From assembly GCA_964417785.1 (NCBI GenBank), contig CAYQJO010000067.1, forward strand, positions 1 through 18,725: 18,725 bases of DNA. The letters run 5' to 3'. The position numbers were made by a program, and so were the translations under genes. Source of the DNA: an uncultured Anaerolineaceae bacterium (lineage in GTDB: Bacteria; Chloroflexota; Anaerolineae; Aggregatilineales; Phototrophicaceae). Below the pieces are notes generated by a model. The model searched no databases and was not told the origin of the DNA. It saw only the letters and a list, made by a program, of their open reading frames with translations. Shown here in pieces: positions 1 through 18,725 of the stretch. Position 1 is the stretch's first letter. The number at the start of each line of letters is the position of its first letter.

Positions 1-44
1 CTGTTTGTGGCATCCTGTAAACATCGATAACAGGAGAAACAAAC

Positions 45-914
45 ATGTCTGAACTTTTCGCAAATCTCTCAGATGCTCTGGCCGACACCGTTGAGCAGGT
101 GTCGGCGGGTGTGGTGCGTGTGGATGGCCGCCGCCGACTGAGTGCGACTGGAATCGTCTGGCGCGACGGTGTTATCGTCAGCGCCAACCACGTTGTCCGC
201 TTTGACGAGGGGCTGAAGGTTGGTCTGCCTGACGGTGAGACGGTCCCGGCATCACTGGTGGGCCGCGATCAAAACACCGACATCGCTGTTCTGAAGGTCG
301 AAGCCGGGATTGCGCCAGTGGCAGTCGCCGCTGATGCGCTGCGTGCCGGCCATCTGGTGCTGGCGTTGGGACGCCCGCGCAATAACATCCAGGCGACATT
401 GGGGGTGGTCAGCGCCACCGGTGAGGGGCGCATGGACGGTGCAATCCAGACCGATGTGGTCATGTATCCGGGCTTCTCAGGTGGGCCGCTGGTGGATGCA
501 TCAGGCAAGGTTCAGGGCATGAACACCTCCGGCTTTATGCGTGGAGCCAGCATCGCCCTGTCATCATCCCTGGTCAACCGGGTGATCGACATATTGCTGG
601 CGCACGGTCACATGCGTCAGGGATACCTGGGTATCGGCGTGCAGCCGGTGCGTCTGCCAGAGGAGGCCGCCGCTGAAACCAATCAGGAGACCGGCCTGAT
701 GGTGGCTTCGGTAGAGTCCGGCAGTCCTGCTGCCAGCGCCGGGGTACTGCTGGGCGATATTGTCACCGCGCTGGACGGCCAGCCGACACCCCATCTGGAC
801 TCACTGCTCGGTATGTTGGGCGGTGACCGTGTGGGTTCGACCGTGCCGATCAAGCTGATACGCGGTGGTGCATGGCAGGAACTCAGCGTGACGATTGGGG
901 AGAAGCAGTCGTGA
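45..914 (+). CDS. Trypsin-like S1C serine protease with a single C-terminal PDZ domain (HtrA/DegP-like). No N-terminal signal peptide is apparent.
   Basis: Catalytic triad motifs are present: SANHVV (His), NTDIAVLKV (Asp) and GFSGGPLVD (Ser). The C-terminal region GIGVQPV...GDIVTALDG is PDZ-like. An AGGAG ribosome-binding site sits 9 nt upstream of the ATG at 45. Confidence 0.8.
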   Translation: MSELFANLSDALADTVEQVSAGVVRVDGRRRLSATGIVWRDGVIVSANHVVRFDEGLKVGLPDGETVPASLVGRDQNTDIAVLKVEAGIAPVAVAADALRAGHLVLALGRPRNNIQATLGVVSATGEGRMDGAIQTDVVMYPGFSGGPLVDASGKVQGMNTSGFMRGASIALSSSLVNRVIDILLAHGHMRQGYLGIGVQPVRLPEEAAAETNQETGLMVASVESGSPAASAGVLLGDIVTALDGQPTPHLDSLLGMLGGDRVGSTVPIKLIRGGAWQELSVTIGEKQS

Positions 915-1170
915 GTCTGCTCTAGCAGTTCCTCAAAGCCAAAATCCACGCCACCATCGTGTAGAATCCGCAGGGCGCGTAATGGTGCCTATGGTCCTTG
1001 ACGCGCCCGCCAAATAGGGCAAAACCTCACAGGTTTGTTGTGCGAAGTGCATAATAATGGCTGAATATCACATGAGAGTCGCGTGTATAACGATAATTTT
1101 TACATATTTCTAATGTGGGTGCTTTGCGACCCTTGTGCAGATATGCTATTCTCTCGCCACTATTCCAATA

Positions 1171-1217
1171 CATAGAATAGAGTTGCGAATGTGGGTAAGC
1201 TCTATGTCATTCGCAAC
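1171..1217. promoter_or_regulatory. Two overlapping inverted repeats in the leader of the ABC operon: CATAGA (1171-1176) pairing with TCTATG (1201-1206), and GTTGCGAATG (1183-1192) pairing with CATTCGCAAC (1208-1217). Candidate operator or alternative RNA hairpins.
   Basis: The second is a perfect 10-bp inverted repeat with a 15-nt spacer, about 35 nt upstream of the SBP start codon. The first is a 6-bp inverted repeat. Their overlap means only one RNA fold can form at a time. The half-site TTGCGA recurs at 1127-1132. Confidence 0.3.
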
Positions 1218-1252
1218 GCCAGATTGTATTTGTTTCAGGAGGAGCAGTTTAC

Positions 1253-2956
1253 ATGAAACGATTGACCCGTTTTGTCGGTTTGAGCCTTGCGCTCATTATG
1301 GTCATGGGACTCGGCTTCGGTGCCGTCAGCGCTCAGGACGAGACCACCATTGTGATCGGGTGGGAGCAGGAACCCAACCAGCTTTCCCCGATTGTGGCGA
1401 TGACCTTTGCCTCGGTGATGCAGCAGTTCTACCAGCGCGACGTCTGGGACTGGGACACCAACAACCAGATTTACCCTGTGATGGTGGAAGAAATCCCTTC
1501 ATTTGATAACGGTATGGTCGAGACCTTGGAAAGCGGTAACACCCAGGTGACCTACAATCTGCGTGAAGGCATGATGTGGTCCGATGGTGAAGCAATCACC
1601 AGCGCCGACTGCGAATTCTGGCATTCAGAAATCATGATGAAGCCGGAGTCGGGTACCATTCAGCGTGGTACATACCCCGAGGTCGTTGAGAGCTTCGAGG
1701 TCGTGGATGACTACACCTTCGTCATGACCTACAGCGTTCCCTTCCCGGACTTCCTGTCGCAGAACACCGCCACCTGTGGCTATCCGGAGCATATTCTGCG
1801 CCCGCAGCTTGAAGAGTTCGGCACGCTGGACGATGCCCCGTTCTTCACCGTGAACGCGGTTTCGGATATGGTTGGTTATGGTCCCTACGTTTTCGGAAAC
1901 TGGACCATCGGCAGCGAAGCGACCTGGGTGAAAAACGACATGTGGGACGGTCAGGAACCGGCCATCGACCGCATTATCGCCCGCTTCATCCCCGAAGCTG
2001 CCCAGATGCGTAACGCGCTGGAAGCCGGTGAAATCGACATGGCCTTCAACTTCGCCGACGATCAGGTGGATGCTTACCTGGAAATCCCCGGTGTTGAAGT
2101 CTGGAGTACTCCCGGTGTCTATGGTGATGCCATCTGGATCAACTACGGCAACAACGTAGAAGGTTCACCGCTGGAAGACGTCAATGTGCGTAAGGCCATC
2201 ATCCACGCGATTGATCGTGTCTCCCTGGCGGAAGAACTGGTCGGCCCCGGTACAGACGTGCCGCGTAGCTGGTACGCGCAGCAGTTCTGGCCTTCGGAAG
2301 AAGACCTGCCGCTGATCGAGTATGATCCCGAAATGGCCGCTCAACTTCTGGATGAAGCCGGCTGGACCCTGGATGAAAATGCTACGATCCGCACCAACGC
2401 CGATGGCGATCAGTTGATCCTCCGCTTCTTCACCACCAGTGGCCGCCAGATCCGTGAAAACTACCAGGTTTTCATCGCAGACTACCTGGGCGAGGTCGGC
2501 ATCAGCGTTCAGCTTCTGCCCATCCCCTCCGGTATCCTGTTCGACACATTCGTCAATCGCGGTGTTCTCTCCACTGGCGACTTCGACCTGGCTCTGTTCG
2601 CACTGAGTACCGATCCGCTTTCGCCCTTCGCGGATGCGCCCACCTGGCTGGGTTGCTCGGGTCTGCCTACAGCCGAGAACCCCAGTGGCCGTAACGGTTG
2701 GGGGGCCTGCTCGCCAGAATTTGACGAACTTGACCTCCAGGTCGGCACAACCGTCGATCCGGAAGAGCGTATGCAACTGGCGCACCAGGCTCAGGTTGAG
2801 TTGTTCGGTGATGAGCAGTTCTGGCACGGCCTGTACCTGCGTCCCACCTGGTACGCGGTCCAGAGCGAAGTTTTCGATCCCAACACGATGCAGGACCTGG
2901 GTACACTGAGCAGCAACTGGTTCAACAAGGTGGAATTCTGGCAGCCGGCCAGCTAA
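1253..2956 (+). CDS. ABC transporter substrate-binding protein, family 5 (peptide/nickel/opine type, DppA/OppA-like), secreted.
   Basis: It has an N-terminal signal peptide MKRLTRFVGLSLALIMVMGLGFGAVSAQ and the length (567 aa) and composition typical of SBP_bac_5. The site GGAGGAG lies 8 nt upstream of the start codon. Two DppB/DppC-type permease genes follow. Confidence 0.85.
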   Translation: MKRLTRFVGLSLALIMVMGLGFGAVSAQDETTIVIGWEQEPNQLSPIVAMTFASVMQQFYQRDVWDWDTNNQIYPVMVEEIPSFDNGMVETLESGNTQVTYNLREGMMWSDGEAITSADCEFWHSEIMMKPESGTIQRGTYPEVVESFEVVDDYTFVMTYSVPFPDFLSQNTATCGYPEHILRPQLEEFGTLDDAPFFTVNAVSDMVGYGPYVFGNWTIGSEATWVKNDMWDGQEPAIDRIIARFIPEAAQMRNALEAGEIDMAFNFADDQVDAYLEIPGVEVWSTPGVYGDAIWINYGNNVEGSPLEDVNVRKAIIHAIDRVSLAEELVGPGTDVPRSWYAQQFWPSEEDLPLIEYDPEMAAQLLDEAGWTLDENATIRTNADGDQLILRFFTTSGRQIRENYQVFIADYLGEVGISVQLLPIPSGILFDTFVNRGVLSTGDFDLALFALSTDPLSPFADAPTWLGCSGLPTAENPSGRNGWGACSPEFDELDLQVGTTVDPEERMQLAHQAQVELFGDEQFWHGLYLRPTWYAVQSEVFDPNTMQDLGTLSSNWFNKVEFWQPAS

Positions 2957-2979
2957 TTCCTGATACGTAAGTCTGAATG

Positions 2980-3010
2980 GGGGAGCGTGTTGCTACGCTC
3001 CCCTTGTTGA
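2980..3010 (+). terminator. Intra-operon hairpin between the substrate-binding protein gene and the first permease gene (GGGGAGCGT-gttgct-ACGCTCCCC, then TTGTTG). Likely a partial terminator or mRNA-stabilising stem-loop.
   Basis: A perfect 9-bp GC-rich stem (2980-2988 pairing with 2995-3003) with a 6-nt loop is followed by a T-containing tract. Placement immediately after the SBP stop codon is the classic arrangement that gives excess SBP transcript. Confidence 0.45.
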
Positions 3011-3031
3011 GTCCCCAGGAAGGACCGCACC

Positions 3032-4063
3032 ATGACGAAATATGTACTGCGCCGGCTGTTTCAGGCTGTGCCACTGATTATTCTTATCACGGTTTTCGTG
3101 TTTCTTCTGCTGAAGACTGCCGGTGATCCGCTGGCGGAGATGTCGTTGGACCCCAACTTTACCGAAGCCGACCGGTTGTTGTTCCGTGCGCGTTTTGGTC
3201 TGGACGATCCACTGCCGCTGCAATTCGTCCACTGGTTGATCGGGGATGACTGGTACAAACGTGACATCAACGGTGATGGCGAACCCGATGAATATGGGAC
3301 ACGTCTGGGCATCCTGCGCGGCGACCTGGGAGACTCGATCTCGTTCCGAAAACCGGTTTCCGAAGTGATCGGTGACTTCCTGCCCAATACGCTGCTGCTC
3401 GGTGTAACCGCTTATGTCTTCACGCTGGTGGTTTCGCTGGTCCTGGGGGTTTTGGCGGCCCTACGCCAGTATACATTGTTTGATAATGTCGTCACAGCAG
3501 GGGCTTTCATAACCTACTCCATACCCGTGTTCCTGCTCGCATTGATCCTGGTGCAGGTATTTGCGATTCAATTTGGCCGATGGGGATTGCCCAGTTTACC
3601 GGTATCGGGTATGTACGATCCACGCGGTGACGAAAGTCTTGACGAACTGCTGCGGCATATGGTCCTGCCGGTATTGAGCCTGTCGCTCATCAGCATTGCC
3701 GGCTACAGTCGCTACATCCGTTCATCCATGCTGGAAGTGATTAACACCGATTATGTGCGTACAGCCCGTGCGAAAGGTCTGGGCGAACGCCGGATTGTTT
3801 TTCTCCATGCCTTGAAAAACGCGGCTCTGCCGTTGATTACGCTGGTGGGACTGGACCTGCCCTTCATCCTGGGCGGGGCCATCATCACGGAGACGATTTT
3901 CTCCTGGCCGGGAATGGGGCGTATGTATATTCAGGCGCTCAACGGTCTGGATTCGGCGTTGCTGATCGCCTTTGTGTTGATGACGGCGGTGGCGGTGGTG
4001 CTGTTCCAGTTGTTTACAGACATCACCTATGCGTGGCTCGATCCGCGTATCCGGTTTGATTAG
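3032..4063 (+). CDS. ABC transporter permease, DppB/OppB-like.
   Basis: The N-terminus MTKYVLRRLFQAVPLIILITVFVFLLL is typical of OppB/DppB. It has multiple transmembrane segments and the conserved permease loop. The site AGGAAGGA lies upstream of the ATG. Confidence 0.85.
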   Translation: MTKYVLRRLFQAVPLIILITVFVFLLLKTAGDPLAEMSLDPNFTEADRLLFRARFGLDDPLPLQFVHWLIGDDWYKRDINGDGEPDEYGTRLGILRGDLGDSISFRKPVSEVIGDFLPNTLLLGVTAYVFTLVVSLVLGVLAALRQYTLFDNVVTAGAFITYSIPVFLLALILVQVFAIQFGRWGLPSLPVSGMYDPRGDESLDELLRHMVLPVLSLSLISIAGYSRYIRSSMLEVINTDYVRTARAKGLGERRIVFLHALKNAALPLITLVGLDLPFILGGAIITETIFSWPGMGRMYIQALNGLDSALLIAFVLMTAVAVVLFQLFTDITYAWLDPRIRFD

Positions 4064-4081
4064 TCAGGGAGATCATCTGAT

Positions 4082-5032
4082 ATGGCTACCGTTTCCCAGA
4101 GTGCGGACAATGTTGTGGCGCTGGAAGCAGAGAAGCGGCAGGCGGACAGCCTGTGGAAAATTATGCGCCGCCGCTTTTTCGGCCACCGGATGGCCGTGTT
4201 CGGCGTTTTCCTGTTAACTGTGATCGCTGCGTATGTTGTCGGCGGGTCGTTCTTCTTATCCGAAGCCGACGCCAACAAAACCAACCTCCGCGCTCGGTTG
4301 GAAGCGCCCAGCGCTGAATACCCCTTTGGTACCGATGAGGCCGGGCGCAATGTGCTGGCACGGACGATCTACGGTGGGCAGATTTCCCTGGCAATCGGTG
4401 TGGTATCCGTTGTAATTTCGATCAGTATGGGGACGGTTGTCGGACTGGTCGCCGGGTACTTTGGTGGTCTGGTCGATGCCCTCCTCATGCGCATTGTCGA
4501 AGCCCTGCTGGCGATCCCGGTGCTGGTGCTGCTGTTGATGCTCAACCGGATTTTCATCGAGTACAACACCTCGAACGTGGTCATTTTAGGGCGTGAGCTA
4601 AGCCTGACGGTGGTGGCGATTATTATCATCATCGGTTTCACTGGCTGGATGGGGCTTTCGCGGATTGTTCGGTCGATGGTGCTTTCGCTCAAAGAGCAGG
4701 AATTTGTTCTGGCGGCCCGCACGATGGGTGCGGGCAGTGCGCGTATTATCTTCCTCCATATTCTGCCCAACTGCATCGCGCCGATTGTGGTAGCGGCGAC
4801 CCTGGGCATCGGACAGGCCATTATCATTGAGACGGCGCTGAGCTTCCTCGGATTTGGCGTCATGCCGCCGACGGCAACCTGGGGCAACATCATCGAAAAC
4901 GCACGCGGCAACATTGATGACTGGTGGTGGTTGTGGGTGTTCCCCGGCATCTTCATCACGGTCACGGTGCTGTCAATTAACTTTATTGGCGATGGTTTGC
5001 GCGACGCCCTTGACCCACGCAGCTTGAAGTGA
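4082..5032 (+). CDS. ABC transporter permease, DppC/OppC-like.
   Basis: It has multiple transmembrane helices and the permease loop IETALSFLGFG. A GGGAG ribosome-binding site sits 8 nt upstream. The gap to the preceding permease gene is 18 nt. Confidence 0.85.
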   Translation: MATVSQSADNVVALEAEKRQADSLWKIMRRRFFGHRMAVFGVFLLTVIAAYVVGGSFFLSEADANKTNLRARLEAPSAEYPFGTDEAGRNVLARTIYGGQISLAIGVVSVVISISMGTVVGLVAGYFGGLVDALLMRIVEALLAIPVLVLLLMLNRIFIEYNTSNVVILGRELSLTVVAIIIIIGFTGWMGLSRIVRSMVLSLKEQEFVLAARTMGAGSARIIFLHILPNCIAPIVVAATLGIGQAIIIETALSFLGFGVMPPTATWGNIIENARGNIDDWWWLWVFPGIFITVTVLSINFIGDGLRDALDPRSLK

Positions 5033-5055
5033 TGTAGGCTATAATCCACACCGGG

Positions 5056-6069
5056 ATGTACCCGGTTTGGAGCCTGTTTTTGCCGACGATCCGTATACCA
5101 CAGCCTGGTGAACTGCCAACCGCGACTGATATGAGTCGGGTGGCTGTAGACGGTGACCGTATCACCGGACACATGACGGTTGCTCGCCATACCCTGCGTT
5201 ATGGCCGGGCCATGCTGCGGATTGCCGCTGTCAGCTATGATGGCGTTCATACCGGGGAGTTGATGCGTGATCTGCTCCCTACGATGATCGAACAGGGCGC
5301 ACATCTGGCGCTGGTCTATGATCGCCATGATGTGTTTGGTGATTTCGGCTTCAGTGCCGTCTGGCCGGAATATCGTTTTGAATTTGACGCCGCTGCCGCA
5401 GCGGCGCTTTCCCCATCACGCCTGCTCCGTCCCCCCCTCATGCAAGAGATTCCCTTACTGGCTGACCTGTACGACCGTCACTGGTCGGCGCGGATTTCGC
5501 TGCTGCGCACTGCCGAGACCTGGATGCAGCGTGCCGGTGATCCGGTCCGTGTGCTACCCGGTTCGGATTCGACGCTGGACGGTTACATTGTGGACCGGGG
5601 AGACGGCTGCGTTGAGGCCGTTGTGGATACAGCACCGGCGGCGCTGGCGGTGCTGGCTGAGGCGGGACACCATTACCAGAATGGGACGATACGCTGGTTG
5701 GTGCCGCCCGATGATGCCCTGGTGTTTTTCGCCCGGCGCTGGCTCGATGTGACCGTCAGCGCCCACTATCCGCTGCATGGCGGTTGGCTGGGACGTCTCG
5801 TCGACGCTGCCGCGTTGATAACGGAACTGATGCCGGAGATCAGCGCCCAGGCTGGTATCGACCCGGCACTGCTGACCATTCACTGCCGGCCTAACACGGT
5901 CTCTATCGGCTTCGGCGGTCACGACATCCGGCTGGATTACCGCGATTTTATGCAGGTGATGTTCGGGGCAGTCAATCCGGCGATGGTAGCGGACAGCGCC
6001 GGAGCCAGCCTGTTGCAGGCATTGTTCCCGCCGCGTGTTGCCGCCCTCGGCTGTTGGGATTGGTTTTAG
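5056..6069 (+). CDS. Hypothetical protein of 337 aa. A possible Eis-like acetyltransferase/SCP2-type fold is very tentative. The start codon is uncertain: ATG 5056 or ATG 5131.
   Basis: A long ORF with protein-like composition lies 23 nt after the permease gene. A TATAAT hexamer at 5040-5045 sits immediately upstream. There are no recognisable catalytic motifs. Confidence 0.55.
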   Translation: MYPVWSLFLPTIRIPQPGELPTATDMSRVAVDGDRITGHMTVARHTLRYGRAMLRIAAVSYDGVHTGELMRDLLPTMIEQGAHLALVYDRHDVFGDFGFSAVWPEYRFEFDAAAAAALSPSRLLRPPLMQEIPLLADLYDRHWSARISLLRTAETWMQRAGDPVRVLPGSDSTLDGYIVDRGDGCVEAVVDTAPAALAVLAEAGHHYQNGTIRWLVPPDDALVFFARRWLDVTVSAHYPLHGGWLGRLVDAAALITELMPEISAQAGIDPALLTIHCRPNTVSIGFGGHDIRLDYRDFMQVMFGAVNPAMVADSAGASLLQALFPPRVAALGCWDWF

Positions 6070-6081
6070 AAAGGCCATTGA

Positions 6082-7041
6082 TTGATCTATTTGATACGAA
6101 CATTGATCGGTGCATACGGTCTGGGTGTTCTGGGTGTTCTGGGTGGCCGGATTGTCATCGGGGAAACCTGGACCGTTATCGCGTTCTTCAATGCCATCCT
6201 CGATCTGGTGTTGTTTCCGTCACTGGTACTGCTGCCGCTGGCATTGCTGCTGCGCCAGCGCTTCGTCGCGACGTTGATGCTGCCACCGATTCTGGCCCTG
6301 GTTGGCTGGTATGCGCCGCTGCTGGTCGTCAGTGGGTCAGTACAATCAGCGGAAGATGCCGCCAGTCGTCTGTCGCTGGTGAGCTATAACGTCAACGGTC
6401 ATAACGACGACTTTGAAGCGATTGCCACCGTCCTGCGAGAGATGAACGCCGATGTGGTGGTGTTGCAGGAGTTGGGGCCGGCGCTGGCGGATTATCTGCT
6501 GGCCGCTATCGGCGATGACTATCCCTTCAACACGTTACAGGTCAATGTGCGCCATGCCATATACGGTGAAGGGGTTCTCAGCCGCCACGAGATTGTTGAA
6601 TCCAGCACATGGATGGGCGAACTGGGCGGCAACCAGCGGGTGTTGATCCAGGTAGGCGATGGACAGGTGGCGGTCTACAACATCCATGCAGCCTACCCGT
6701 TTGTGGTCGGTGGTTTCGACAGCCGCCGCCGTGATGTCTCCACAATCCTCGAACTGGCTGCTGCTGAAACGGTGCCGGTCATACTGGCTGGTGACTTCAA
6801 CCTGACGCCGCGCTCCGAGGACTATGATCGGCTGGTCAGCACGTATGTCGATGTCCACGCAGCGGTCGGCAGTGGTTTGGGTTATACCTTTACCCCGCGC
6901 TTCAGCCCGATCCCGCTGGCCCGCATTGATTATATCTTTGTCGATGAACGGCTGACACCGCTGCGAATTCGCGTCGGTTCTGATACTGGCGGGTCCGATC
7001 ATTCTCCGGTATGGGTGACTATAACCGGCGAATCTGAATAA
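6082..7041 (+). CDS. Endonuclease/exonuclease/phosphatase (EEP) family protein with an N-terminal polytopic membrane anchor.
   Basis: The EEP motifs are LVSYNVNGHND, VVVLQELGP, ILAGDFNLTPRSEDYDRL and GGSDHSPVWVTI. About 90 N-terminal residues form 2-3 hydrophobic helices. The start is an alternative codon (TTG at 6082, with AAAGG upstream). A tandem GTGTTCTGG repeat lies at 6122-6143. Confidence 0.75.
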   Translation: MIYLIRTLIGAYGLGVLGVLGGRIVIGETWTVIAFFNAILDLVLFPSLVLLPLALLLRQRFVATLMLPPILALVGWYAPLLVVSGSVQSAEDAASRLSLVSYNVNGHNDDFEAIATVLREMNADVVVLQELGPALADYLLAAIGDDYPFNTLQVNVRHAIYGEGVLSRHEIVESSTWMGELGGNQRVLIQVGDGQVAVYNIHAAYPFVVGGFDSRRRDVSTILELAAAETVPVILAGDFNLTPRSEDYDRLVSTYVDVHAAVGSGLGYTFTPRFSPIPLARIDYIFVDERLTPLRIRVGSDTGGSDHSPVWVTITGESE

Positions 7042-7885
7042 AGTCGACTTTTGCCACGTTTTCGGCGCAGGTGTTGCGGGTGAAGATCATGATCTCCTCC
7101 GATAGTGGCACACCGGCAGGGCTGTACAACTGGACGTTATACTGCCCTTCGGTTGGAGTCCCACCCAGATTAAACTCGTAGCCGCCCGGACCCATCGCCA
7201 GCGCCGCCCCACTAAAAACCCGCACGGTAAGCCTGTCGGGGTCCTGCACATCGATGATCCGTATCGAGTAGTTGTCCAGTGCTTCCCCGTCCAACCCGCG
7301 CACGGTCCCGGCGATGCTGCTCCAGTTGCAGCCGCGCTCGTTGGTGTTGGTCGTATAAGTTACACCCGCTTCACTGACGGCGAACGGGTACAGCGTTTCG
7401 GGATCAACCGGCGTAGGCATGACGCTGGCCGTCGGTGTTTCAGTAGGAATGGGTGTGATATCACCCGCTGCTTCGGCGGTCAGGGTGACGAAATAGGTGG
7501 CGACGGCAGCAGCATCGGACGTCATGGATACCTCGATAAAGGGTGTGGGGGGCGCGAACGGATTCAGCGGCGTATAGTGGTCTTCGTAGATCAGCAGGTA
7601 ATAACGCGCCAGCGCTACCGTCGCAAGCAAGAAAAATACGGCCACCACATCATGTCGCCAGTTGCCCTGCCGCCGTTTGCGTTTTGGCGGGCGCTGGCGC
7701 GGACGCTTTTCCGGTTCCAGCGCGGGCAGGGGCGGGAAGCGCTCCTCCGGCGGGGTGTACTTCACCGGTACGACCGCGTCCTCTACCACCTCCACATCGT
7801 CAGGCCGGGTCAGACTCTCCTGGATTTCGTCCCAGTTCGGCTCGTCCTGCTCCGGCGGATTATTGCCACGACCGAACAATCTCAT
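7019..7885 (-). CDS. Membrane protein, paralog B. It has a Pro/Arg/Lys-rich cytoplasmic N-terminal region of about 75 aa, one transmembrane helix, a PT-rich linker and a roughly 115-aa two-cysteine C-terminal domain.
   Basis: The basic stretch RPRQRPPKRKRRQGNWRHD is followed by the transmembrane helix VVAVFFLLATVALARYYLLIY. The linker is PIPTETPTASVMPTPVDPET. The C-terminal domain (GCNWSSIAGTVRGLDGE ... NTCAENVAKVDFIQIRRL) aligns with the C-terminus of the upstream gene at 7882..8649. There is a 4-bp start/stop overlap with that gene. Confidence 0.7.
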   Translation of the reverse strand: MRLFGRGNNPPEQDEPNWDEIQESLTRPDDVEVVEDAVVPVKYTPPEERFPPLPALEPEKRPRQRPPKRKRRQGNWRHDVVAVFFLLATVALARYYLLIYEDHYTPLNPFAPPTPFIEVSMTSDAAAVATYFVTLTAEAAGDITPIPTETPTASVMPTPVDPETLYPFAVSEAGVTYTTNTNERGCNWSSIAGTVRGLDGEALDNYSIRIIDVQDPDRLTVRVFSGAALAMGPGGYEFNLGGTPTEGQYNVQLYSPAGVPLSEEIMIFTRNTCAENVAKVDFIQIRRL

Positions 7886-8649
7886 GGGCGATCACGGGTC
7901 TGGATGAAGCGTAAGATGGCGACATTACCGTTGCAATCTCCGGGGAAGGCCACCTGGATTTCCGGTGACAGCGCTGTTCCCAGAGACGTTTCCAGACGGA
8001 CGAAATAGACCTGCTGGTTGATGGTATCCGCCACTTTGACCTCAAAGCCAGAGCGTGCGCCATACAACGAGTTTGATCCGGTTGGTTGTTTGGTGTCAAT
8101 GAAATCGTTGTAGACATGAATCTGGTACACCTGTTCCGTCTCCTGTCCGTCCACGCCCAGCACATTGCCCCCGATCCCCTGCCACGCGCAGCCAGCCGCG
8201 TTGGCGGTGTTGGGATTGAAGAGAATGTCATCACGCAGGGTGAACAGGAAGGGGTTGTCCGTCGGTGTAAATGTCAATGTCGGGCCAACGGGTGTGGCCG
8301 TGTCAGTGGCGGTCGGGCTGGCCGACGGGGTGAAGGTCGCTGAAGGTGTGGGCGTCGGTCCCGGTGTTTCGGTAATGGTCGGTGAGGGTGTGACCGACTG
8401 GGTTTCGGTGGGTACTTCGGTGAAGGTCGGTGTATTGGACGGCGTGAGAGTGGCTGTGGGGGTTTCGCTTGGTGTGACGGTGAAGGTCGGTGTCGCTGAT
8501 GGCAACACGATTCCCGTTGGCAGCGGCAGCGCCGCCACCTCATCTTGCTGCTCAGGGCCGAGCAGACGGACGACCACAAACACCAGCATCAAAGCTGACA
8601 GGGTGACAAAGACCAGACTGATGATGTCGTAAACGCGGGCAGTGTTCAT
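7882..8649 (-). CDS. Membrane protein, paralog A. It has a short N-terminus, one transmembrane helix, a long PT-rich linker and a two-cysteine C-terminal domain.
   Basis: The transmembrane helix is IISLVFVTLSALMLVFVVVRLL. The linker (TPTFTVTPSETPTATLTPSNTPTFTEVPTET...) is about 100 aa. The C-terminal domain (GCAWQGIGGNVLGVDGQE ... CNGNVAILRFIQTRDRP) is homologous to that of 7019..7885. Confidence 0.7.
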   Translation of the reverse strand: MNTARVYDIISLVFVTLSALMLVFVVVRLLGPEQQDEVAALPLPTGIVLPSATPTFTVTPSETPTATLTPSNTPTFTEVPTETQSVTPSPTITETPGPTPTPSATFTPSASPTATDTATPVGPTLTFTPTDNPFLFTLRDDILFNPNTANAAGCAWQGIGGNVLGVDGQETEQVYQIHVYNDFIDTKQPTGSNSLYGARSGFEVKVADTINQQVYFVRLETSLGTALSPEIQVAFPGDCNGNVAILRFIQTRDRP

Positions 8650-8654
8650 CAGGG

Positions 8655-8756
8655 CTAGACCAGTTGAAAAACGACAAATAGAACCCAGAAAAAGGACAGC
8701 ACCAGAAACGTGATTGAAATCATGTTGTAGATGCGGGCGTTGCCTGTTCCAAGCAT
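8655..8756 (-). CDS. Micro-ORF of 33 aa (MLGTGNARIYNMISITFLVLSFFWVLFVVFQLV). A single transmembrane helix, homologous to the N-terminal anchor of the downstream paralog A.
   Basis: A strong AGGAG ribosome-binding site lies 7 nt upstream of the ATG. It begins 9 nt after the PPIase stop codon and ends 5 nt before the ATG of 7882..8649. The sequence NARIYNMISITFLVLSFFWVLFVVFQL is similar to TARVYDIISLVFVTLSALMLVFVVVRL of the next gene. Confidence 0.4.
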   Translation of the reverse strand: MLGTGNARIYNMISITFLVLSFFWVLFVVFQLV

Positions 8757-8765
8757 GGCGAGCTC

Positions 8766-9665
8766 CTAATTGATATAGCGCTCGATAGTGGCAGTTTCCC
8801 GGCGTGAATCCAGCCAGGTGATGAATTGATCGATGTTTTGCTGCACGCGCTCCTGGTCGGAGACTTCGCGCTGGCCGGCTTCGAGCGTTTCGACAATATG
8901 ATAACCGAGCATAGTTTGTACTGGCCCGGTCCGTTCGCCCGGATTGAGCGAAAACGCGACTTGCGTCAGTTCCGGTGTCAGCAGGTCATCGCGGTCGAAC
9001 CAGCCCAGATCACCGCCCTGGTCGCGGGTGGTCACATCCAGTGAATACTCCGCCGCCAGCACCGCGAAATCCTCGCCAGCAGCCAGACGGGCAAAGACCT
9101 CGCGGGCTTCGTCCTCAGTCTCCACCAGGATATGGCGGGCACGGACCTGCTCAACCGGGCCACTGGTTGGTTGAATGATCTCCATTTGAAGGCGTTGGGT
9201 AATCAGGGTATCGGGCAGCGTGTCCAGATATTCCTGCTCATTTGCGAACTGGTTGGCAGATAGCCAATTCTGCCATGCGCTGTCGTCCGGCAGTGCCGCC
9301 CGTGCCTGCTCGTATTCAGACTGAATATCGGCGTCGCTGATGGTGATTCCCATCTCGGCAGCGGCCTGATTGATGATGGCCTGCTCAATCAGTGTGTTCA
9401 GCACCAGACTCGCAACAGCGTCATAACTGGCCCCATTCTGTTGGCGGCGATCAAATGCCCGCTGGAATTCGTTCAATGTGATGGCTTCGCCGTTGACCCG
9501 GGCGACCAGTTGCTCGCCGTCGTTGTTCAACGGTAGGGCCGGTTCGGCGGTGGTTTGAATGGTAGCAGTGGGTTGTGGTGCAGTGGTCGCCGGTGCATCA
9601 TCACCATCAGATGAACAGGCAGCAGCCAACAATAACACCAGAATCCCAATGAATACGCGATACAT
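8766..9665 (-). CDS. Parvulin-type (PpiC) peptidyl-prolyl cis-trans isomerase with a SurA/PrsA-like N-terminal chaperone region. A probable lipoprotein or secreted foldase.
   Basis: The rotamase motifs are ARHILV, GGDLGWF and GYHIVE. The ATG at 9665 is preceded by AAGGA and followed by the signal peptide MYRVFIGILVLLLAAAC. The longer ORF to 9842 has no ribosome-binding site. Confidence 0.8.
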   Translation of the reverse strand: MYRVFIGILVLLLAAACSSDGDDAPATTAPQPTATIQTTAEPALPLNNDGEQLVARVNGEAITLNEFQRAFDRRQQNGASYDAVASLVLNTLIEQAIINQAAAEMGITISDADIQSEYEQARAALPDDSAWQNWLSANQFANEQEYLDTLPDTLITQRLQMEIIQPTSGPVEQVRARHILVETEDEAREVFARLAAGEDFAVLAAEYSLDVTTRDQGGDLGWFDRDDLLTPELTQVAFSLNPGERTGPVQTMLGYHIVETLEAGQREVSDQERVQQNIDQFITWLDSRRETATIERYIN

Positions 9666-9970
9666 ACCTATCCTTAAACGTCGATCTCTGGCGCATATTA
9701 TGCGACCAGCATCAGATAATCGCAAGTGGCACACCTGACAGAGATTGAACCACGCCATTTCAATGGCAGTGGTTTCTCGTTTTGTATCGGGTATAGACGG
9801 GCAAAACACGCCATCATCAGGCGTTTTTGTGCTATACTTCACTGTGGCGGTCGCTCAGACAAATCTCTCTGAAGTGTTGGCCGTGATGGAAGTTAATGGC
9901 GTCAACCGAGGCTCAGGCCCAGATCGACGCCTGAAACGCGGACGAATAACCTTATTAAGGAGAAGTATTA

Positions 9971-10831
9971 GTGGCAATCCCGAAACTGACTTTTGGACGT
10001 ACCGGACATGAGAGTACCCGTACATTGTTCGGCGCGGCGTCGTTGGGCAAGGTGACACAGGCCGAGGCCGATAAGACGCTGGACCTGCTGCTGGAATATG
10101 GTGTTAACCACATCGACACCGCCGCCAGCTACGGCGAATCCGAACTGCGCATCGGTCCCTGGATGGAAAAATATCGTGACCAGTTCTTCCTGGCGACCAA
10201 GACCGGCAAACGTACTTATGCCGAAGCCAAAGAGGAGTTCGAGCGCTCACTGGAACGGCTGCGTGTAGATTCAGTTGATCTGATCCAGCTTCACTATCTG
10301 GTGGGCGAGGAAGAATGGGAAGTGGCGATGGGTTCCGGCGGCGTGCTGGAATACCTGATCGAGGCCAAAGACCAGGGTCTGGTGAAGTATATCGGTGTGA
10401 CCGGCCACGACGTCGCCATTGTCCACATGCACCGTAAGAGCCTGGAACGCTACGACTTCGATTCGGTGCTGCTGCCCTACAATTACTTGATGATGCAAAA
10501 TCCGGAATACGCCGCTGGTTTCAACGAGATTCTGCGGATGGCGAAAGAGCGTAACGTCGCCGTTCAGACCATTAAGTCGATCAGCCGCCGTCGCTACACC
10601 GGCGACCGCACGCATTCGACCTGGTATGAGCCGTTGACCGACCAGGACGCTATTGACAATCTGGTCCACTGGGTGCTGGGTCAGGAAGGCATCTTCCTCA
10701 ACACCGTCGGTGACATCACCGTGCTGCCGAAGGTACTGGATGCGGCCAGCCGCTTCGAGGGCCAACGTCCGTCGGATGCGGAAATGGACGCGCTGGTGGC
10801 TCAGAACGCGATGGAGCCGCTGTTTACGTAA
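9971..10831 (+). CDS. Aldo/keto reductase family oxidoreductase.
   Basis: The N-terminus reads [21 protein letters not shown], and the sequence [12 protein letters not shown] contains the catalytic Tyr typical of the AKR fold. The start is a GTG with AAGGAG 9 nt upstream. Confidence 0.8.
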
Positions 10832-10849
10832 AAGTAGTCCAAACAAAGC

Positions 10850-10877
10850 GAGAAGGCGACCGTCTGGTCGCCTTCTC
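10850..10877. terminator. Bidirectional intrinsic terminator between the convergent aldo/keto reductase and rhodopsin genes.
   Basis: A perfect 12-bp stem GAGAAGGCGACC-gtct-GGTCGCCTTCTC is flanked by TGGGTTCT on the plus-strand side. On the minus-strand side the flank is GCTTTGTTTGG. Confidence 0.6.
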
Positions 10878-10905
10878 TGGGTTCTGAGATGCCTGATGCG
10901 CTCTA

Positions 10906-11712
10906 TTAATTGCTGCTGACCGAAGCCGGCTGTGGATCACGGAAGCGGCGAGCATCATCGAGTTCTACCTCTGTCTCCGCCTCTGACTTGGCCCGCGCAA
11001 TGCTGTAGATCAATACGCCATAGCCACACTTGGCCGCCACATCAGCGATGCAGTAACCAACCTGGATGGCGATCAACGCGGTTGCACCTTCAACGCCGAG
11101 GATCGGCAGGAGATAGACCATCGGGTAAAAGCCCCAGGTGGCGAAGAGGAGCAGCCGAGCGTTGCGTACCAGCACTTTAGCCTCACCGGGCTGGCGATCA
11201 ATCGCTTCGCCAAGCTGGGAAAACAGCGCATACAGGATGTAAAGGAAGGGCAGGGTGCTGATGAAGCCCCACAGGGCGCGGGTACCGTTATCCGGTGCGA
11301 TCTCGCCCGGATAGCCCAGGATGACCATCGCAGCAGCAGCCAGACCCAGACGGAAAGTCATCTTGGCGGCCTGCGCACGCGGCAGCGTCAGCACGGCCAC
11401 CAGTTCAGCCACCAGCAGCGGCACGGTCAGCAGCCAATCGACGTAGCGATAGGCGTCGTTAAATGGTTCTCCGCTGGCAACGTAGGTGCCGTCCTGCAAG
11501 ACATAAGCACCAGCCCAACTCTCAAAAATGCGAAAATAGTGGTAACCGGCTACGGCCACAACCAGCGCCGACATCACCAGCGCCCCGCGATACTTCGGGG
11601 CAACATCCTGGCGCTTCAGCACGAAGAAGATGAATGACGCGAACATGGCCGCAAAGGTGAAAGAGAAAGCGTTGTAGACCAGACTGTACTGATCGGGGGT
11701 AAGTTCTACCAT
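10906..11712 (-). CDS. Microbial (type I) rhodopsin, a proteorhodopsin/xanthorhodopsin-family light-driven proton pump with a DTE motif.
   Basis: Helix C reads RYVDWLLTVPLLVAEL (Asp, Thr, Glu at the BR85/89/96 positions). Helix G reads IADVAAKCGYG, carrying the Schiff-base lysine. Helix F reads WGFYP. Helix E reads LWGFIST, with Gly at the bacteriorhodopsin Trp138 position, as in xanthorhodopsin/Gloeobacter rhodopsin. Helix B carries His in GYHYF. Seven hydrophobic helices are present. The start is ATG 11712 or GTG 11715. Confidence 0.9.
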   Translation of the reverse strand: MVELTPDQYSLVYNAFSFTFAAMFASFIFFVLKRQDVAPKYRGALVMSALVVAVAGYHYFRIFESWAGAYVLQDGTYVASGEPFNDAYRYVDWLLTVPLLVAELVAVLTLPRAQAAKMTFRLGLAAAAMVILGYPGEIAPDNGTRALWGFISTLPFLYILYALFSQLGEAIDRQPGEAKVLVRNARLLLFATWGFYPMVYLLPILGVEGATALIAIQVGYCIADVAAKCGYGVLIYSIARAKSEAETEVELDDARRFRDPQPASVSSN

Positions 11713-11715
11713 CAC

Positions 11716-11850
11716 TCCAATACCTTTAAACTAACACTTCGTTCGGAACGTTCAACTTGTGATGAACGTCACTATGTACAAAGTACAAATATTAGTTAAG
11801 TATTGCGTGTATACGGGCTAAATGTTTACGTAGCGCATAATACGCCATAG
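11716..11850 (-). promoter_or_regulatory. AT-rich island of about 135 bp (roughly 35% GC against about 61% GC background) immediately upstream of the rhodopsin gene. Putative promoter with a TTTGTAC direct repeat and a TGTACA palindrome.
   Basis: The base composition drops sharply here. Read on the minus strand, the sequence is TTAACTAATATTTGTACTTTGTACATAGTGACG. AAAGG and GGAG ribosome-binding elements sit next to the start codon. Confidence 0.35.
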
Positions 11851-11861
11851 CAAGGTTCACC

Positions 11862-11889
11862 CGCCGCCGTGAGCGAACTCACGGCGGCG
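11862..11889 (-). terminator. Stable hairpin about 100 nt downstream of the flotillin stop codon (CGCCGCCGTGAG-cgaa-CTCACGGCGGCG). Candidate terminator or 3' stabiliser without a clear U-tract.
   Basis: A perfect 12-bp GC-rich stem with a 4-nt loop. No T-run follows on either strand, so a terminator role is uncertain. Confidence 0.35.
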
Positions 11890-11990
11890 TAAATGGGGAT
11901 GCTTCATGCGACTGCCCCCAGTTGCTCGGATTTATGGTGCCATCGGCGTCTGGGGGTAACTCGTTGCGGTTTTGCGGTTCAGGAAAAAAA

Positions 11991-13460
11991 TTATGCCGGA
12001 GTCTCGTCGTCCTCTTCCGGCAGGATGGGCGGTCGTTCAACTGGCGCTGTACCGTTTTCCATCTTGATCGCGTTGAACATCTCCGATATTTTCACCAGCG
12101 TCTCCTGGAAGTCGTCACCAGTCAGTGCCTCAACTTTGGTGGTGAACATATCCGCCACCTGCGGGATGTTCAGCAGCATATCCAGGAAGGTATTGCCGGT
12201 AACGCCGTGACCGTTGCCCCCGCCAAAATCGACGATGCGAACGTTGCCACCAAGACCGGCCAGGGCCTGGGCGATGGCTTCCGCCTTGGCGATGTCGGCT
12301 CTGGTGAGCTGCTCGACCACGTACTGGCGCAGGTTGATCTCACCCTCGGCAGCACTGGCGGCGGCGATTTCGCGCCGGCCTTCGGCTTCCGCCAGGAGTT
12401 TGGCGCGTTCACCTTCGGCTTCCGCCAGGAATTGTGCTCGCATACCCTCAGCCTCGGCTTTGTTGCCTTCGGCTTCTGCCTGCTTCATGGCTTTCAGCGC
12501 GTCTGCGTCGGCTTGCGCTTTCTCGCGGATGGCGCGGGCCTGAGCTTCAGCTTCGATCTCAATACGGCGGCGTTCGGCTTCGGCGCGGATTTCAGTCGCC
12601 TGGCGCGACGCCCGGGCCGGGACCAGCACCTCGGCTTCCTGCTGCTGCTCGACGGCCAGTGCCTTGCGCTTCTGCACTTCCTGACCGCTGTCGGCTTCGG
12701 CCAATCCCACCTGGCGGTTGACCTCGACCTCACGCAGCTTCAGCGCTTCGCGTTGCGCCAGAATCTCACGCTGCGCGTCCAGTTCGGCCTGTTCCGCTGC
12801 TTGCAGCGCTTCGGCGGCCTTGACTCGCGCCTGACGGTCGGCTTCCGCTTCGGCGATGGCGGCGTCACGCTTAACGGCAGCGATTTGTGGGGCGGCCATC
12901 GCTTGTAGATAGCCTTGCTCGTCGGTGATCTCCTCGATACCCATCGAGATGACCTTGACACCCATCGCGGCCACATCGTCCGACGCCAGTTCCTGCACTT
13001 TCTGGACGAAGCTGTCGCGGTCGCGGTGGATGGCTTCAACCGACATCTGCCCGACGATGGCGCGGAAGTTGGCGCTCAGGGTTTCCTCAATAACCCGGCG
13101 GACTTCATCTGAGGACTTGTCGAGAAAAGCACGGGTAGCGGTGCGCAGCGCCGATTCTTCGCTGTCGATCTGGACCTGGGCCACCCAGTCTAACTGGATC
13201 GGTACGCCGCTCTCAGTATAGACCTCATCCTTCTCGGTCTTGATCGTCATGATGGTGATGTCGAGCAGCTTGTAGCTCTCAATCACCGGCCATACAAAGA
13301 CACCACCGTTCGTCACCAGCCGCGATTGTCCGCGACCGAAAACAACCATGACCTTGCTCGGCGGAACTTTATGATAATAGCGTGTAATAAAAGCGATGAG
13401 TGCCGTGAGCAGCACCACCGCCCCGACAACAACGATGATCCATTCAAAACCACCTTCCAT
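11991..13460 (-). CDS. floT: Flotillin (SPFH/band-7 domain, FloT/YuaG-like) with a long Ala/Glu-rich coiled-coil region.
   Basis: It has an N-terminal transmembrane helix and the SPFH domain (VFVWPVIESYKLLDITIMTI...). The EA-rich repeats (AEAEADRQARVKAAEALQAAEQAELDAQ...) are characteristic of flotillins. An AGGAG ribosome-binding site is present. It starts 10 nt after the stop codon of the nfeD-like gene. Confidence 0.88.
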   Translation of the reverse strand: MEGGFEWIIVVVGAVVLLTALIAFITRYYHKVPPSKVMVVFGRGQSRLVTNGGVFVWPVIESYKLLDITIMTIKTEKDEVYTESGVPIQLDWVAQVQIDSEESALRTATRAFLDKSSDEVRRVIEETLSANFRAIVGQMSVEAIHRDRDSFVQKVQELASDDVAAMGVKVISMGIEEITDEQGYLQAMAAPQIAAVKRDAAIAEAEADRQARVKAAEALQAAEQAELDAQREILAQREALKLREVEVNRQVGLAEADSGQEVQKRKALAVEQQQEAEVLVPARASRQATEIRAEAERRRIEIEAEAQARAIREKAQADADALKAMKQAEAEGNKAEAEGMRAQFLAEAEGERAKLLAEAEGRREIAAASAAEGEINLRQYVVEQLTRADIAKAEAIAQALAGLGGNVRIVDFGGGNGHGVTGNTFLDMLLNIPQVADMFTTKVEALTGDDFQETLVKISEMFNAIKMENGTAPVERPPILPEEDDETPA

Positions 13461-13470
13461 GTCTTGCTCC

Positions 13471-14004
13471 TTAATTGTTTCGTTTCTTCTTCACAATGAG
13501 CCGGCCTTCACGCACATCAACAACCTCTACGATGTCGCCCTTTTCCAGCAAGACTTCATCGCTGCTGGCTTTGACCGGATACTTCATCACCGACCCGGCC
13601 TCCACCATTGCTTCGCCGGTTTTGCCTGGTGGGATGTTGACTGTGATGCGAGCGAAAGCCCCGATCAAGGATTCGCTGGTTACAACATCGGTGGATTGCT
13701 GCCGGATAACAAAGTTCAACACCGCAGCCGTCGAGCGTCCGAAAATGAGGCCGAAAACGGCTCCAGCGGCCAGGCTGAAGGCCAGGTTCCAGCCGGAGAG
13801 TTCCCCAACCAGACCCATCGAGCCAAAACCAGTCATAAACGCCGCGATGACCATGCAGCCCAGGTTACGAGCTTCCGATGTATCCGCGCCGACATCGACG
13901 TCTACATCCACATCGGTGTCAATGTCGGCAAAATCTCCCAGGAAAATGGAGATCAGCAGAAATGCCACACCACCCGCCATGATTGCCGCGAATATCCACG
14001 TCAT
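13471..14004 (-). CDS. NfeD-family membrane protein (YuaF-like), partner of flotillin.
   Basis: It has N-terminal transmembrane helices plus a C-terminal OB-fold-like tail (GDIVEVVDVREGRLIVKKK). An AGGAG ribosome-binding site is present. The nfeD-floT gene order is conserved in many bacteria. Confidence 0.78.
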   Translation of the reverse strand: MTWIFAAIMAGGVAFLLISIFLGDFADIDTDVDVDVDVGADTSEARNLGCMVIAAFMTGFGSMGLVGELSGWNLAFSLAAGAVFGLIFGRSTAAVLNFVIRQQSTDVVTSESLIGAFARITVNIPPGKTGEAMVEAGSVMKYPVKASSDEVLLEKGDIVEVVDVREGRLIVKKKRNN

Positions 14005-14136
14005 ACTTTTGCCGCTCCTAAGAATTTGATCTCAGTATAGGCCATCCCGGACCAGGTGGGTCCCCCAGAGTTTGGGGCATAGCACACACACTTATGTTAC
14101 AATGGATACGTTCTGTTATGTGTATAGATACCGCCC

Positions 14137-14853
14137 GTGAGCGATTTCAAGCCCGACATCTGGCGTCTTCAGGCGCAGTTCAACACGCAGGGTCTCGTAG
14201 AGGCGTTGGCGAACGATGACGCCGGTATTCGTCGGCGTGCCGCTGCCGCATTACGTGCGCTGGGGGCCTATCATGCCATCCCTGAGCTTGAGGCCGCCCT
14301 GGAAAGCGAATCCGACCCGGAGACCCGTGCGAATATGTTGGCGGCGCTGGCGACGCTGCACCAGGAGCGGGAACGCAAAGAGCAGGATGAAGCGACGCTC
14401 GAAGTACCCGGTGCGCGGTTGACCGAGGTGGACCGCTTGCTTCAGGCCCTTCAGGTGACGACCGATCCCGATACCATCATCCAACTGGCACGCAAATTAG
14501 GTGATCTGGGAGCCAAGCAGGCCGTCGATACCCTGGTGGTGCTGTTCAACAATGCCCAGTTGCCCATCCGTGTGCGATTGGCGGTGGCGGAAGTTCTGCT
14601 TAAACTGGAAAGTGCGCCGATTGAGGTGGCGCTGCTGGGGGCGCTTTCCAGCCCACAGTGGCGGGTGCGCCGCAACAGTGCGGCTATTCTGGGCCAACTT
14701 CGGGCGGTCTGGGCGGTTGAACCGCTGGCGGTGGCGCTGCGCGATGAGCATGAAATGGTGCGCCGGACTGCCTATGCGGCGTTGAGGAATATCGGTACGC
14801 CGGAAGCACTGCGTGCGATACGCCGGAAGGAAGAGGACCAGGAGGGGTTATGA
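14137..14853 (+). CDS. HEAT-repeat (PBS-lyase-like) protein, cytoplasmic.
   Basis: There are repeated helical units of about 30 aa with the pattern xxVRxxAAxALGxIG (IRRRAAAALRALG, VRRNSAAILGQL, VRRTAYAALRNIG). The start is GTG. The stop codon overlaps the downstream ATG (ATGA). Confidence 0.72.
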   Translation: MSDFKPDIWRLQAQFNTQGLVEALANDDAGIRRRAAAALRALGAYHAIPELEAALESESDPETRANMLAALATLHQERERKEQDEATLEVPGARLTEVDRLLQALQVTTDPDTIIQLARKLGDLGAKQAVDTLVVLFNNAQLPIRVRLAVAEVLLKLESAPIEVALLGALSSPQWRVRRNSAAILGQLRAVWAVEPLAVALRDEHEMVRRTAYAALRNIGTPEALRAIRRKEEDQEGL

Positions 14854-16520: not shown

Positions 16521-16544
16521 ATAGCATAGAAGACAGGCGCAGCA

Positions 16545-16579
16545 TACACCCCTCGCGCCACACGCACGAAGGGTGTATA
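16545..16579. terminator. Weak inverted repeat (ATACACCC ... GGGTGTAT, 19-nt loop) in the 61-bp convergent gap between the SH3b gene and the adhesin gene.
   Basis: An 8-bp inverted repeat at 16545-16552 pairs with 16572-16579. It is the only structure in the convergent intergenic region and has no clear U-tract. Confidence 0.25.
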
Positions 16580-16581
16580 GA

Positions 16582-18531: not shown

Positions 18532-18653
18532 AAATAACCTCTGCTGCAATAATGACTGATAAAGTTAAAATGAAAACTTGTTGCCATTAGTGTAACAGCT
18601 TTATGCATTGAGGCTGCTGGAATTTACGGAAATTTGGTATTTTTTCAGATTTT

Positions 18654-18674
18654 CCAGGGGGACCTGCCCCCTGG
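18654..18674. promoter_or_regulatory. GC-rich palindrome CCAGGGGG-acctg-CCCCCTGG inside the AT-rich region upstream of the adhesin gene. Candidate operator.
   Basis: A perfect 8-bp inverted repeat with a 5-nt spacer lies about 125 bp upstream of the start codon. On the plus strand T-runs precede it. On the minus strand A-runs follow it. Neither orientation fits a canonical terminator. Confidence 0.3.
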
Positions 18675-18725
18675 ATGGGGTATAGGGCGCTAGACATTAT
18701 GGTGATGAGGTCTGGCTGTTGCGCA

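Follow-up and report, generated by a model that had tools for sequence, protein, structure and literature searches.

Why should a gene for an extracytoplasmic folding catalyst lie among genes for two related membrane proteins and for a product of only 33 amino acids (aa)? The question is raised by a stretch of 18,725 nucleotides (nt) from an uncultured Anaerolineaceae bacterium (contig CAYQJO010000067.1 of assembly GCA_964417785.1, positions 1 to 18,725), which we call the window. On its minus strand, between positions 7019 and 9665, four co-oriented genes encode a parvulin-type peptidyl-prolyl isomerase (PPIase), a micro-protein and two membrane proteins, here named A and B, and the genes are separated by gaps of 9 nt, 5 nt and -4 nt, the last being a 4-nt overlap. 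This layout had been described in an earlier note made from the sequence of the window alone, and our analysis confirmed both the open reading frames (ORFs) and their spacing. We found that the PPIase, A and B genes recur together and in fixed order in most of the related loci that could be assessed. We tentatively regard the cassette as a self-contained envelope operon of the Anaerolineae/Aggregatilineales, which would encode a membrane-anchored stalk hetero-oligomer along with the foldase that handles it, and we place the probability of this reading slightly below even.

The cassette was surveyed with the B-type peptide pattern GCNW[SA]SIAG across species, each represented by one genome, and 37 loci were returned, nearly all of them labelled Anaerolineae, Aggregatilineales, Anaerolineaceae or uncultured Chloroflexi (metagenome-assembled genomes, MAGs). 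In six-frame searches of these loci, which represent different species, co-oriented genes in the order PPIase, A, B were present in 32 of the 35 loci with enough upstream DNA, a count that leans towards the B-type subfamily owing to the single peptide used. The same order was detected in two further metagenomic loci (L003 and L004). Such a recurrence is more than chance, and the neighbourhood, whose lack of conservation had been named in the earlier note as a possible refutation, proved to be conserved. The gap between A and B was at most 20 nt in 27 of 34 loci, most commonly 2-4 nt or a 4-nt overlap, in line with the tight spacing seen in the window. When the long ORFs of 42 loci were clustered, no family besides the cassette genes and their antisense shadow ORFs occurred in more than 12 loci. 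The neighbours present in 10-12 loci (a convergent histidine kinase gene, a divergent M28 peptidase gene and a divergent esterase gene) were each limited to one subclade and none was co-oriented with the cassette; they were rejected as conserved flanking genes. Because the gene order is kept while the flanking genes vary, the cassette can be considered a conserved unit.

It could be argued that the neighbourhood is a housekeeping one, in which the PPIase serves as a general secretion foldase while A and B are unrelated envelope proteins, adjacent by descent and not its preferred clients. All the loci come from one class and part of the synteny is explained by shared ancestry; the PPIase resembles the general foldase PrsA, and relatives of the domain shared by A and B exist without a PPIase neighbour. 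However, repeated turnover of the genes on both sides has left the three cassette genes together and in unchanged order, 2-4 nt apart or overlapping. The persistence of this tight order despite the turnover of the flanks implies selection for co-expression, and we judge the housekeeping explanation to be rather unlikely.

Three MAGs labelled Leptolyngbyaceae cyanobacterium, Bacteroidetes and Oceanobacillus (L011, L030 and L035, respectively) carried B or the full Anaerolineae-type cassette. These off-lineage labels probably reflect binning contamination rather than horizontal transfer.

The PPIase of the window exceeded the Pfam cut-offs both for the parvulin domain (Rotamase_3, 67.7 bits against 22.5; Rotamase, 65.9 against 21.7) and for the chaperone domain (SurA_N_2, 51.4 bits against 28.5; SurA_N_3, 45.9 against 27.2). 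Its N-terminus, MYRVFIGILVLLLAAAC, is a lipoprotein-type signal, and a lipobox (...LLLAAAC-SS) could be read from the sequence, which is weak since it has alanine at -3. Of the 36 PPIase ORF segments from the loci, at least 30 carry a lipobox pattern, and 31-33 keep the H...D...H motifs of parvulins, represented in the window by ARHIL, GGDLGW and GYHIV. The assignment to secreted or lipoprotein PPIases of the PpiC type, as proposed in the earlier note, is supported by these data. The closest solved relative was PrsA of Bacillus subtilis (4WO7, E = 7.7e-19), which matched residues 99-273 and covered the chaperone and the parvulin parts, and one public source names the protein 'foldase protein PrsA'. 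At the same time, the PPIase remained below every NCBIfam equivalog cut-off (NF002827, 72 against 343 bits; NF002846, 57.5 against 361; the best, NF000809, 97 against 303) and below those for the PpiC-related peptide maturation family TIGR04500 (30.5 against 180 bits) and the EpsD-type PPIase TIGR02925 (22.7 against 108.9). As no equivalog cut-off was reached, we call the protein PrsA-like by architecture and a putative foldase, and do not take its orthology with PrsA as proven.

What could such a foldase act on? The C-terminal domains of A and B (about 125 aa, hereafter the heads) share 31% identity (E = 4e-14), and each is preceded by a single transmembrane helix and a linker rich in proline and threonine (PT linker; in A 100 aa with a P+T content of 51%, in B 65 aa with 35%). 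Since the flank before the B helix has a net charge of +8, the N-terminus of B is predicted to lie inside. In A the anchor helix is located at the extreme N-terminus and leaves essentially no cytoplasmic part, and the same applies to the micro-protein. Thus, two paralogous single-pass proteins with an inside N-terminus and PT stalks, as the earlier note had them, are indeed what the sequences predict. Both cysteine positions of the shared domain, which the note had estimated at about 115 aa, were invariant in 166 of 166 family domains, and a disulfide between the two is likely.

The heads correspond to no named family, so that the other refutation considered in the earlier note, a match to a well-characterised family, did not apply either. 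A and B reached no Pfam or NCBIfam family, and the sole trace was a sub-threshold match of B to MG2 (PF01835; 15.9 bits against 32.8, E = 0.017), whereas relatives scored only 17-18 bits with CarboxypepD_reg (PF13620), the cut-off of which is 32.3. A sequence search of the head domains against solved structures gave no meaningful match. An AlphaFold model of protein B has a pLDDT (predicted local distance difference test) of 92.5. The fold of the head is a seven-stranded prealbumin-like beta-sandwich of the CnaB/transthyretin-like kind, so that what had been reported as an unrecognised domain is uncatalogued as a sequence family but ordinary in its fold. An isopeptide bond of the CnaB type was rejected because no column in the alignment of 166 domains contains more than 6% lysine; a glutamate (99%) and an asparagine (96%) are conserved, but the partner lysine of the Lys-Asn/Asp-Glu triad is missing.

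The family looked rare in a word-indexed homologue search, which returned only 4 relatives per domain. An exhaustive profile search with a hidden Markov model over 1.84 billion cluster representatives (clusters at 50% identity) uncovered 1,515 representatives with E ≤ 1e-3, of which 1,156 had E ≤ 1e-10. Among the best 150 of the 1,515 relatives two architectures predominate, one A-like with the helix at the N-terminus and the other B-like with 80-200 aa of tail before the helix. Rarer are proteins in which a single N-terminal helix or signal sequence is followed by two or three heads in tandem (P0009-P0014 and P0064), an SH3_3 insertion in the stalk and one TIR_2 fusion, the last two described below. 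Wherever a source name was found for A, B, the micro-protein and ten relatives, it read 'hypothetical protein'. In the relative P0015 and in locus L004 (A gene at 2556-3555) an SH3_3 domain is inserted in the PT stalk of A. As SH3_3 is often a cell-wall-binding module, the insertion fits a stalk that spans the wall. One subclade has an A protein of 331 aa, a length shared by the A proteins of L007 and L027.

The cytoplasmic tail of B bears short conserved motifs. A match to [DE]R[FY]P, seen as ERFPPL in the window, was present in 61 of 73 full-length B-type representatives and is visible in most loci. Most relatives also carry the basic N-terminal motif V-R-R-x-G-R-K-D-R-K-R-x-L-D-x-R-G-P-L-F-P-P-E, which is degenerate in the window (MRLFGRG...). 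Directly outside the membrane, the segment N-P-Y-x-x-L-N-P-F-P-P-F-T-P is strongly conserved in most B proteins of the loci and in 12 of 12 representatives read by eye. The presence of conserved motifs on the inner side raises the question of whether the cassette is a transmembrane sensor, in which B, with A as a co-receptor, would sense an envelope or external ligand with its head and signal through its tail to a cytoplasmic partner, the PPIase being a maturation helper. The RsgI-type anti-sigma factors of clostridia are built in this way, with an inside N-terminus, one helix, a PT linker and a C-terminal beta-sandwich outside, and the architecture of A and B matches theirs. The relative P0127 (501 aa; L044, 3674-5179) joins an N-terminal cytoplasmic TIR_2 domain through a helix to the same head, which suggests that in some contexts the head may act as the input domain of a sensor. 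Moreover, in 11 loci (L014, L018-L020, L022, L025, L028-L031 and L042) a histidine kinase ORF of about 1,100 aa with a HATPase_c domain ends immediately downstream of B (about 6350-9750 of these loci, minus strand). However, the kinase gene is convergent and limited to one subclade, and hardly any of A or of the micro-protein would lie in the cytoplasm. In the tail of B no anti-sigma, other signalling, Pfam or NCBIfam domain was recognised, and a search with an alignment of 15 tail sequences found no match at E ≤ 0.01 and thereby no other protein families. No sigma factor was detected among the widespread neighbour families of the 42 clustered loci, nor is any regulator gene conserved beside the cassette. 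The lack of an anti-sigma domain in B and of a conserved sigma factor gene weakens the anti-sigma version in particular, and we regard a sensor function of the cassette as unlikely.

The third component is the micro-protein. It shares 44% identity over 27 aa with the N-terminal helix of A (E = 3e-7), in agreement with the proposal of the earlier note that it mimics the transmembrane anchor of the putative clients. Between the PPIase and A genes, 20 of the 32 cassettes, L004 and the window contain a micro-ORF, which measures 33-37 aa from the aligned ATG and reaches up to 45 aa when read from start codons farther upstream; its product has the motif R-[IV]-Y-N-x-I-S-x-x-F-x-x-L-S...R-L-L-G-P-A. 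Most copies are preceded at 5-10 nt by an AGGAG-like sequence resembling a Shine-Dalgarno (SD) site, and the gap to A is mostly 17 nt or less. In the other 12 cassettes the ORF is missing, the PPIase and A genes being 15-52 nt apart or separated by a longer gap without such an ORF. One of these spacers, 310 nt long (L039, 3695-4005), contains a run of 13 cytosines and a GC-rich sequence resembling an inverted repeat, and it may be an inserted small repeat element.

An ORF of this size might well encode no functional protein, being either what is left of a third paralogue after its decay or an upstream ORF (uORF) whose translation merely tunes the expression of A. Its absence from more than a third of the cassettes would fit such a view, as would its stop codon a few nt before the start codon of A, where a coupling uORF would end. 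Against both speak the conserved length and motif and the SD-like sequence, and the substitution pattern points in the same direction. The mean proportions of differences at nonsynonymous (pN) and synonymous (pS) sites were 0.32 and 0.69, giving a pN/pS of 0.47 with synonymous sites near saturation, and the median ratio of nonsynonymous to synonymous substitution rates (dN/dS) was 0.31 over the 114 pairs with finite dS. The micro-ORF is under purifying selection. In addition, for the 21 micro-proteins that have their own A, the nearest sequence was another micro-protein in 14 cases and some A anchor in 5, with 2 ties; in no case did a micro-protein resemble its own A more than it resembled another micro-protein, and one was equally close to both. 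Although a tree of micro-proteins and anchors, built on 27 residues, is not robust, these counts imply a single ancient duplication of the anchor, with the copy since retained in some lineages and lost in others, and not repeated recent decay. A micro-ORF that is non-functional or purely a uORF is very improbable. On the basis of these comparisons the micro-ORF is a real, old gene encoding an anchor-only paralogue of the membrane helix of A. As a member of the cassette, for which its frequency had been a question of the earlier note, it is accessory only.

How might these components work together? The anchors of the micro-protein, A and B are alignable (ARIYNMISITFLVLS, ARVYDIISLVFVTLS and WRHDVVAVFFLLAT in the window, with closer matches in other loci). 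They share Y-N/D-x-I/V-S/T, and the recurring residues (Tyr-Asn/Asp...Ser/Thr...Ser/Thr) lie on the same side of the helix. The association of membrane helices is known to be driven by polar residues, asparagine among them. Because the anchors share this polar face and asparagine is known to promote association, we propose that A and B, with or without the micro-protein, would assemble through their homologous anchors (polar face Y-N-x-I-S...L-S/T) into a hetero-oligomer. The Pro/Thr-rich stalks of about 65-100 residues would hold the beta-sandwich heads, presumably stapled by their disulfides, off the membrane and across or into the wall layers, and B would contribute the cytoplasmic tail with its short conserved motifs (basic RRxGRKDRK in relatives, and ERFPPL). 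On the outer face of the membrane, the lipid-anchored PrsA-like parvulin would most likely act as a foldase or holdase for the emerging proline-rich ectodomains. Such a relation would be akin to that of PrtM and PrtP in Lactococcus, where a dedicated PrsA-like lipoprotein is encoded together with its client (PMC3307742). The earlier note did not know of a described system in which a dedicated foldase is encoded with its probable clients and with a micro-protein that mimics their anchor; for a foldase encoded with its client, the lactococcal pair is already such a case, and in our loci the corresponding linkage of a PrsA-like lipoprotein gene with putative client genes is that found in the 32 of 35. 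Cryo-tomography of a filamentous member of the Chloroflexota has revealed a cytoplasmic membrane, peptidoglycan, inner and outer layers and an S-layer-like lattice (PMC13319060), and stalks of the length of A and B could span such layers, which provides context rather than evidence. Our preference for an envelope module thus draws on four points: the genes form a fixed, tight operon, the topologies match, the structural neighbours are of the stalk type, and PrtM-PrtP provides a precedent.

Several observations weigh against the envelope module. In three loci (L011, L012 and L037) the B gene is solitary, and the bias of the survey towards the B-type subfamily applies to all the conservation figures. 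P0013, with three tandem heads (L043, 8001-9617), is encoded alone beside a hisG gene without a PPIase, and the TIR_2 fusion P0127 has no PPIase neighbour either, which implies that the head domain can fold without a dedicated foldase next to it. Besides, linkers rich in Pro and Thr tend to be disordered and to do without a foldase, and the PPIase could be the general PrsA of the cell that is merely kept beside A and B. A more far-reaching version of the envelope module would be a lineage-defining connector of filamentous Anaerolineae. In this version a heteromeric complex of three helices would need its own PrsA-like foldase; the stalks would tie the membrane to outer wall, sheath or S-layer-like layers and the B tail would tie the complex to a cytoplasmic partner. 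The micro-protein would compete for the helix interface and thereby control assembly or stoichiometry, as a bacterial counterpart of plant 'microProteins'. We think it improbable that the version holds in this full form.

Features of the PPIase, micro-ORF, A and B cassette in the window.
Feature	Residues	Positions	Strand	Description
PPIase		8766-9665	-	PrsA-like lipoprotein parvulin, 299 aa; lipoprotein signal, SurA_N-like chaperone domain and parvulin domain
Micro-ORF		8655-8756	-	33 aa, single transmembrane helix; AGGAG upstream
Protein A		7882-8649	-	255 aa
Protein A, anchor helix	~6-29	8563-8634	-	
Protein A, PT-rich stalk	31-130	8260-8559	-	
Protein A, beta-sandwich head (predicted)	131-255	7885-8259	-	C154 and C239
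Protein B		7019-7885	-	288 aa
Protein B, cytoplasmic tail (predicted)	1-78	7652-7885	-	
Protein B, anchor helix	~79-100	7586-7651	-	
Protein B, Pro-rich stalk	101-165	7391-7585	-	
Protein B, beta-sandwich head (predicted)	166-288	7022-7390	-	C186 and C273
ERFPPL motif, cytoplasmic tail of B		7727-7744	-	
Pro-rich motif of B, just outside the membrane		7538-7576	-	YTPLNPFAPPTPF; family consensus NPYsxLNPfPPfTP
Sigma-70-like promoter match		9697-9725	-	TTGCGA-17-CATAAT, ~32 nt upstream of the PPIase start codon

The ATG of the PPIase at 9665 corresponds to residue 60 of a longer ORF that begins with GTG at 9842, and the public gene call likewise starts at the ATG-derived length of 299 aa. The promoter match is by consensus only (9 of 12 positions), the region having 4 such matches where 1.5 were expected from shuffled sequences. 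Matches resembling intrinsic terminators occurred within the cluster at chance level only. No Rfam family was found in the 305-nt leader or elsewhere in the window, and a regulatory RNA in the leader was rejected on this ground; no tRNA was found in the window. The window is identical to part of the contig DAOTUL010000263.1 (52,961 bp; NCBI assembly GCA_034437435.1), in which all four genes have been called, the 33-aa one included, and the same B protein is also present on a short contig from a microbial-mat metagenome.

Around the cassette, the last 23 nt of B (7019-7041) are shared with the 3' end of a convergent gene of the endonuclease/exonuclease/phosphatase (EEP) family (6082-7041, plus strand), which leaves no space for a terminator between the two. 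Between this gene and an Opp-type ATP-binding cassette (ABC) transporter operon lies an ORF of 337 aa without a Pfam match (5056-6069, plus strand). A microbial rhodopsin gene (10906-11715, minus strand; Bac_rhodopsin, 132.7 bits) is located 1.2 kb upstream of the cassette; its helix C, D-W-L-L-T-V-P-L-L-V-A-E, contains the DTE motif as in proton pumps of the proteorhodopsin/xanthorhodopsin type, and a lysine is found in ...DVAAKCGYG. Farther upstream (11991-14004, minus strand), a 489-aa SPFH/Band_7 protein follows a 177-aa protein with a sub-threshold match to the NfeD C-terminal domain, the usual NfeD-stomatin membrane pair.

Taken singly, the PrsA-like foldase, the CnaB/transthyretin-like sandwich, the PT linkers and the small membrane protein of the cassette are all of known kinds. 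The novelty lies in the uncatalogued family of head domains, the fixed pairing of two paralogues behind a foldase across a bacterial class and the conserved anchor-only duplicate in the form of a micro-protein. In the searchable literature we found no description of the PPIase, micro-ORF, A and B cassette. Members of the Anaerolineae are among the most abundant and least understood bacteria of sludge, sediments and microbial mats, and they have an atypical envelope whose proteins are largely unidentified; the cassette offers a concrete, conserved set of candidate envelope components for this class. The head domain comprises more than 1,500 clusters that neither Pfam nor NCBIfam covers, and it therefore lends itself to the definition of a new family. 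If the link between foldase and clients is true, it would represent a rare natural case in which the clients of a PrsA are defined, and if the micro-protein acts on the anchors of its paralogues, it would clearly exemplify how a small protein can arise through the truncating duplication of its target.

When compared with known systems, A and B are similar to the RsgI-type anti-sigma factors in being single-pass proteins with an inside N-terminus, a PT-rich linker and an outside C-terminal beta-sandwich, but they lack the RsgI_N domain and an adjacent sigma factor gene. With the CnaB/transthyretin-like (CarboxypepD_reg) stalk domains of Gram-positive pilins and adhesins the heads share only 12-22% identity, and their scores stay below the Pfam thresholds. 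In place of the isopeptide triad of those domains they have the invariant cysteine pair, and the proteins are anchored by an N-terminal helix instead of LPXTG and sortase. The micro-protein resembles small bacterial proteins such as MgrB and AcrZ, which modulate the larger membrane proteins PhoQ and AcrB, respectively; it likewise has about 35 aa and one helix and is encoded beside larger membrane proteins. Plant 'microProteins' derive from their targets, and the micro-protein too is a truncated paralogue of the interaction module of its presumed partner; to our knowledge, no bacterial micro-protein that duplicates the anchor helix of its neighbour has been described. The PPIase has in common with PrsA of B. 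subtilis the lipoprotein signal, the SurA_N-like chaperone domain wrapped round the parvulin domain and the H/D/H motifs. It differs in falling far under the PrsA equivalog cut-offs and in standing first in a fixed operon that also encodes two particular membrane proteins, a position that prsA of B. subtilis is not known to have. The nearest parallel for the cassette as a whole is PrtM-PrtP of Lactococcus lactis, where a parvulin-family lipoprotein is likewise encoded with an envelope protein, which PrtM matures (PMC3307742). In that system the genes reside on a plasmid and a large subtilisin-like proteinase is the client, whereas the cassette is chromosomal and class-wide, its putative clients being a micro-protein and two small single-pass stalk proteins that are paralogues of each other.

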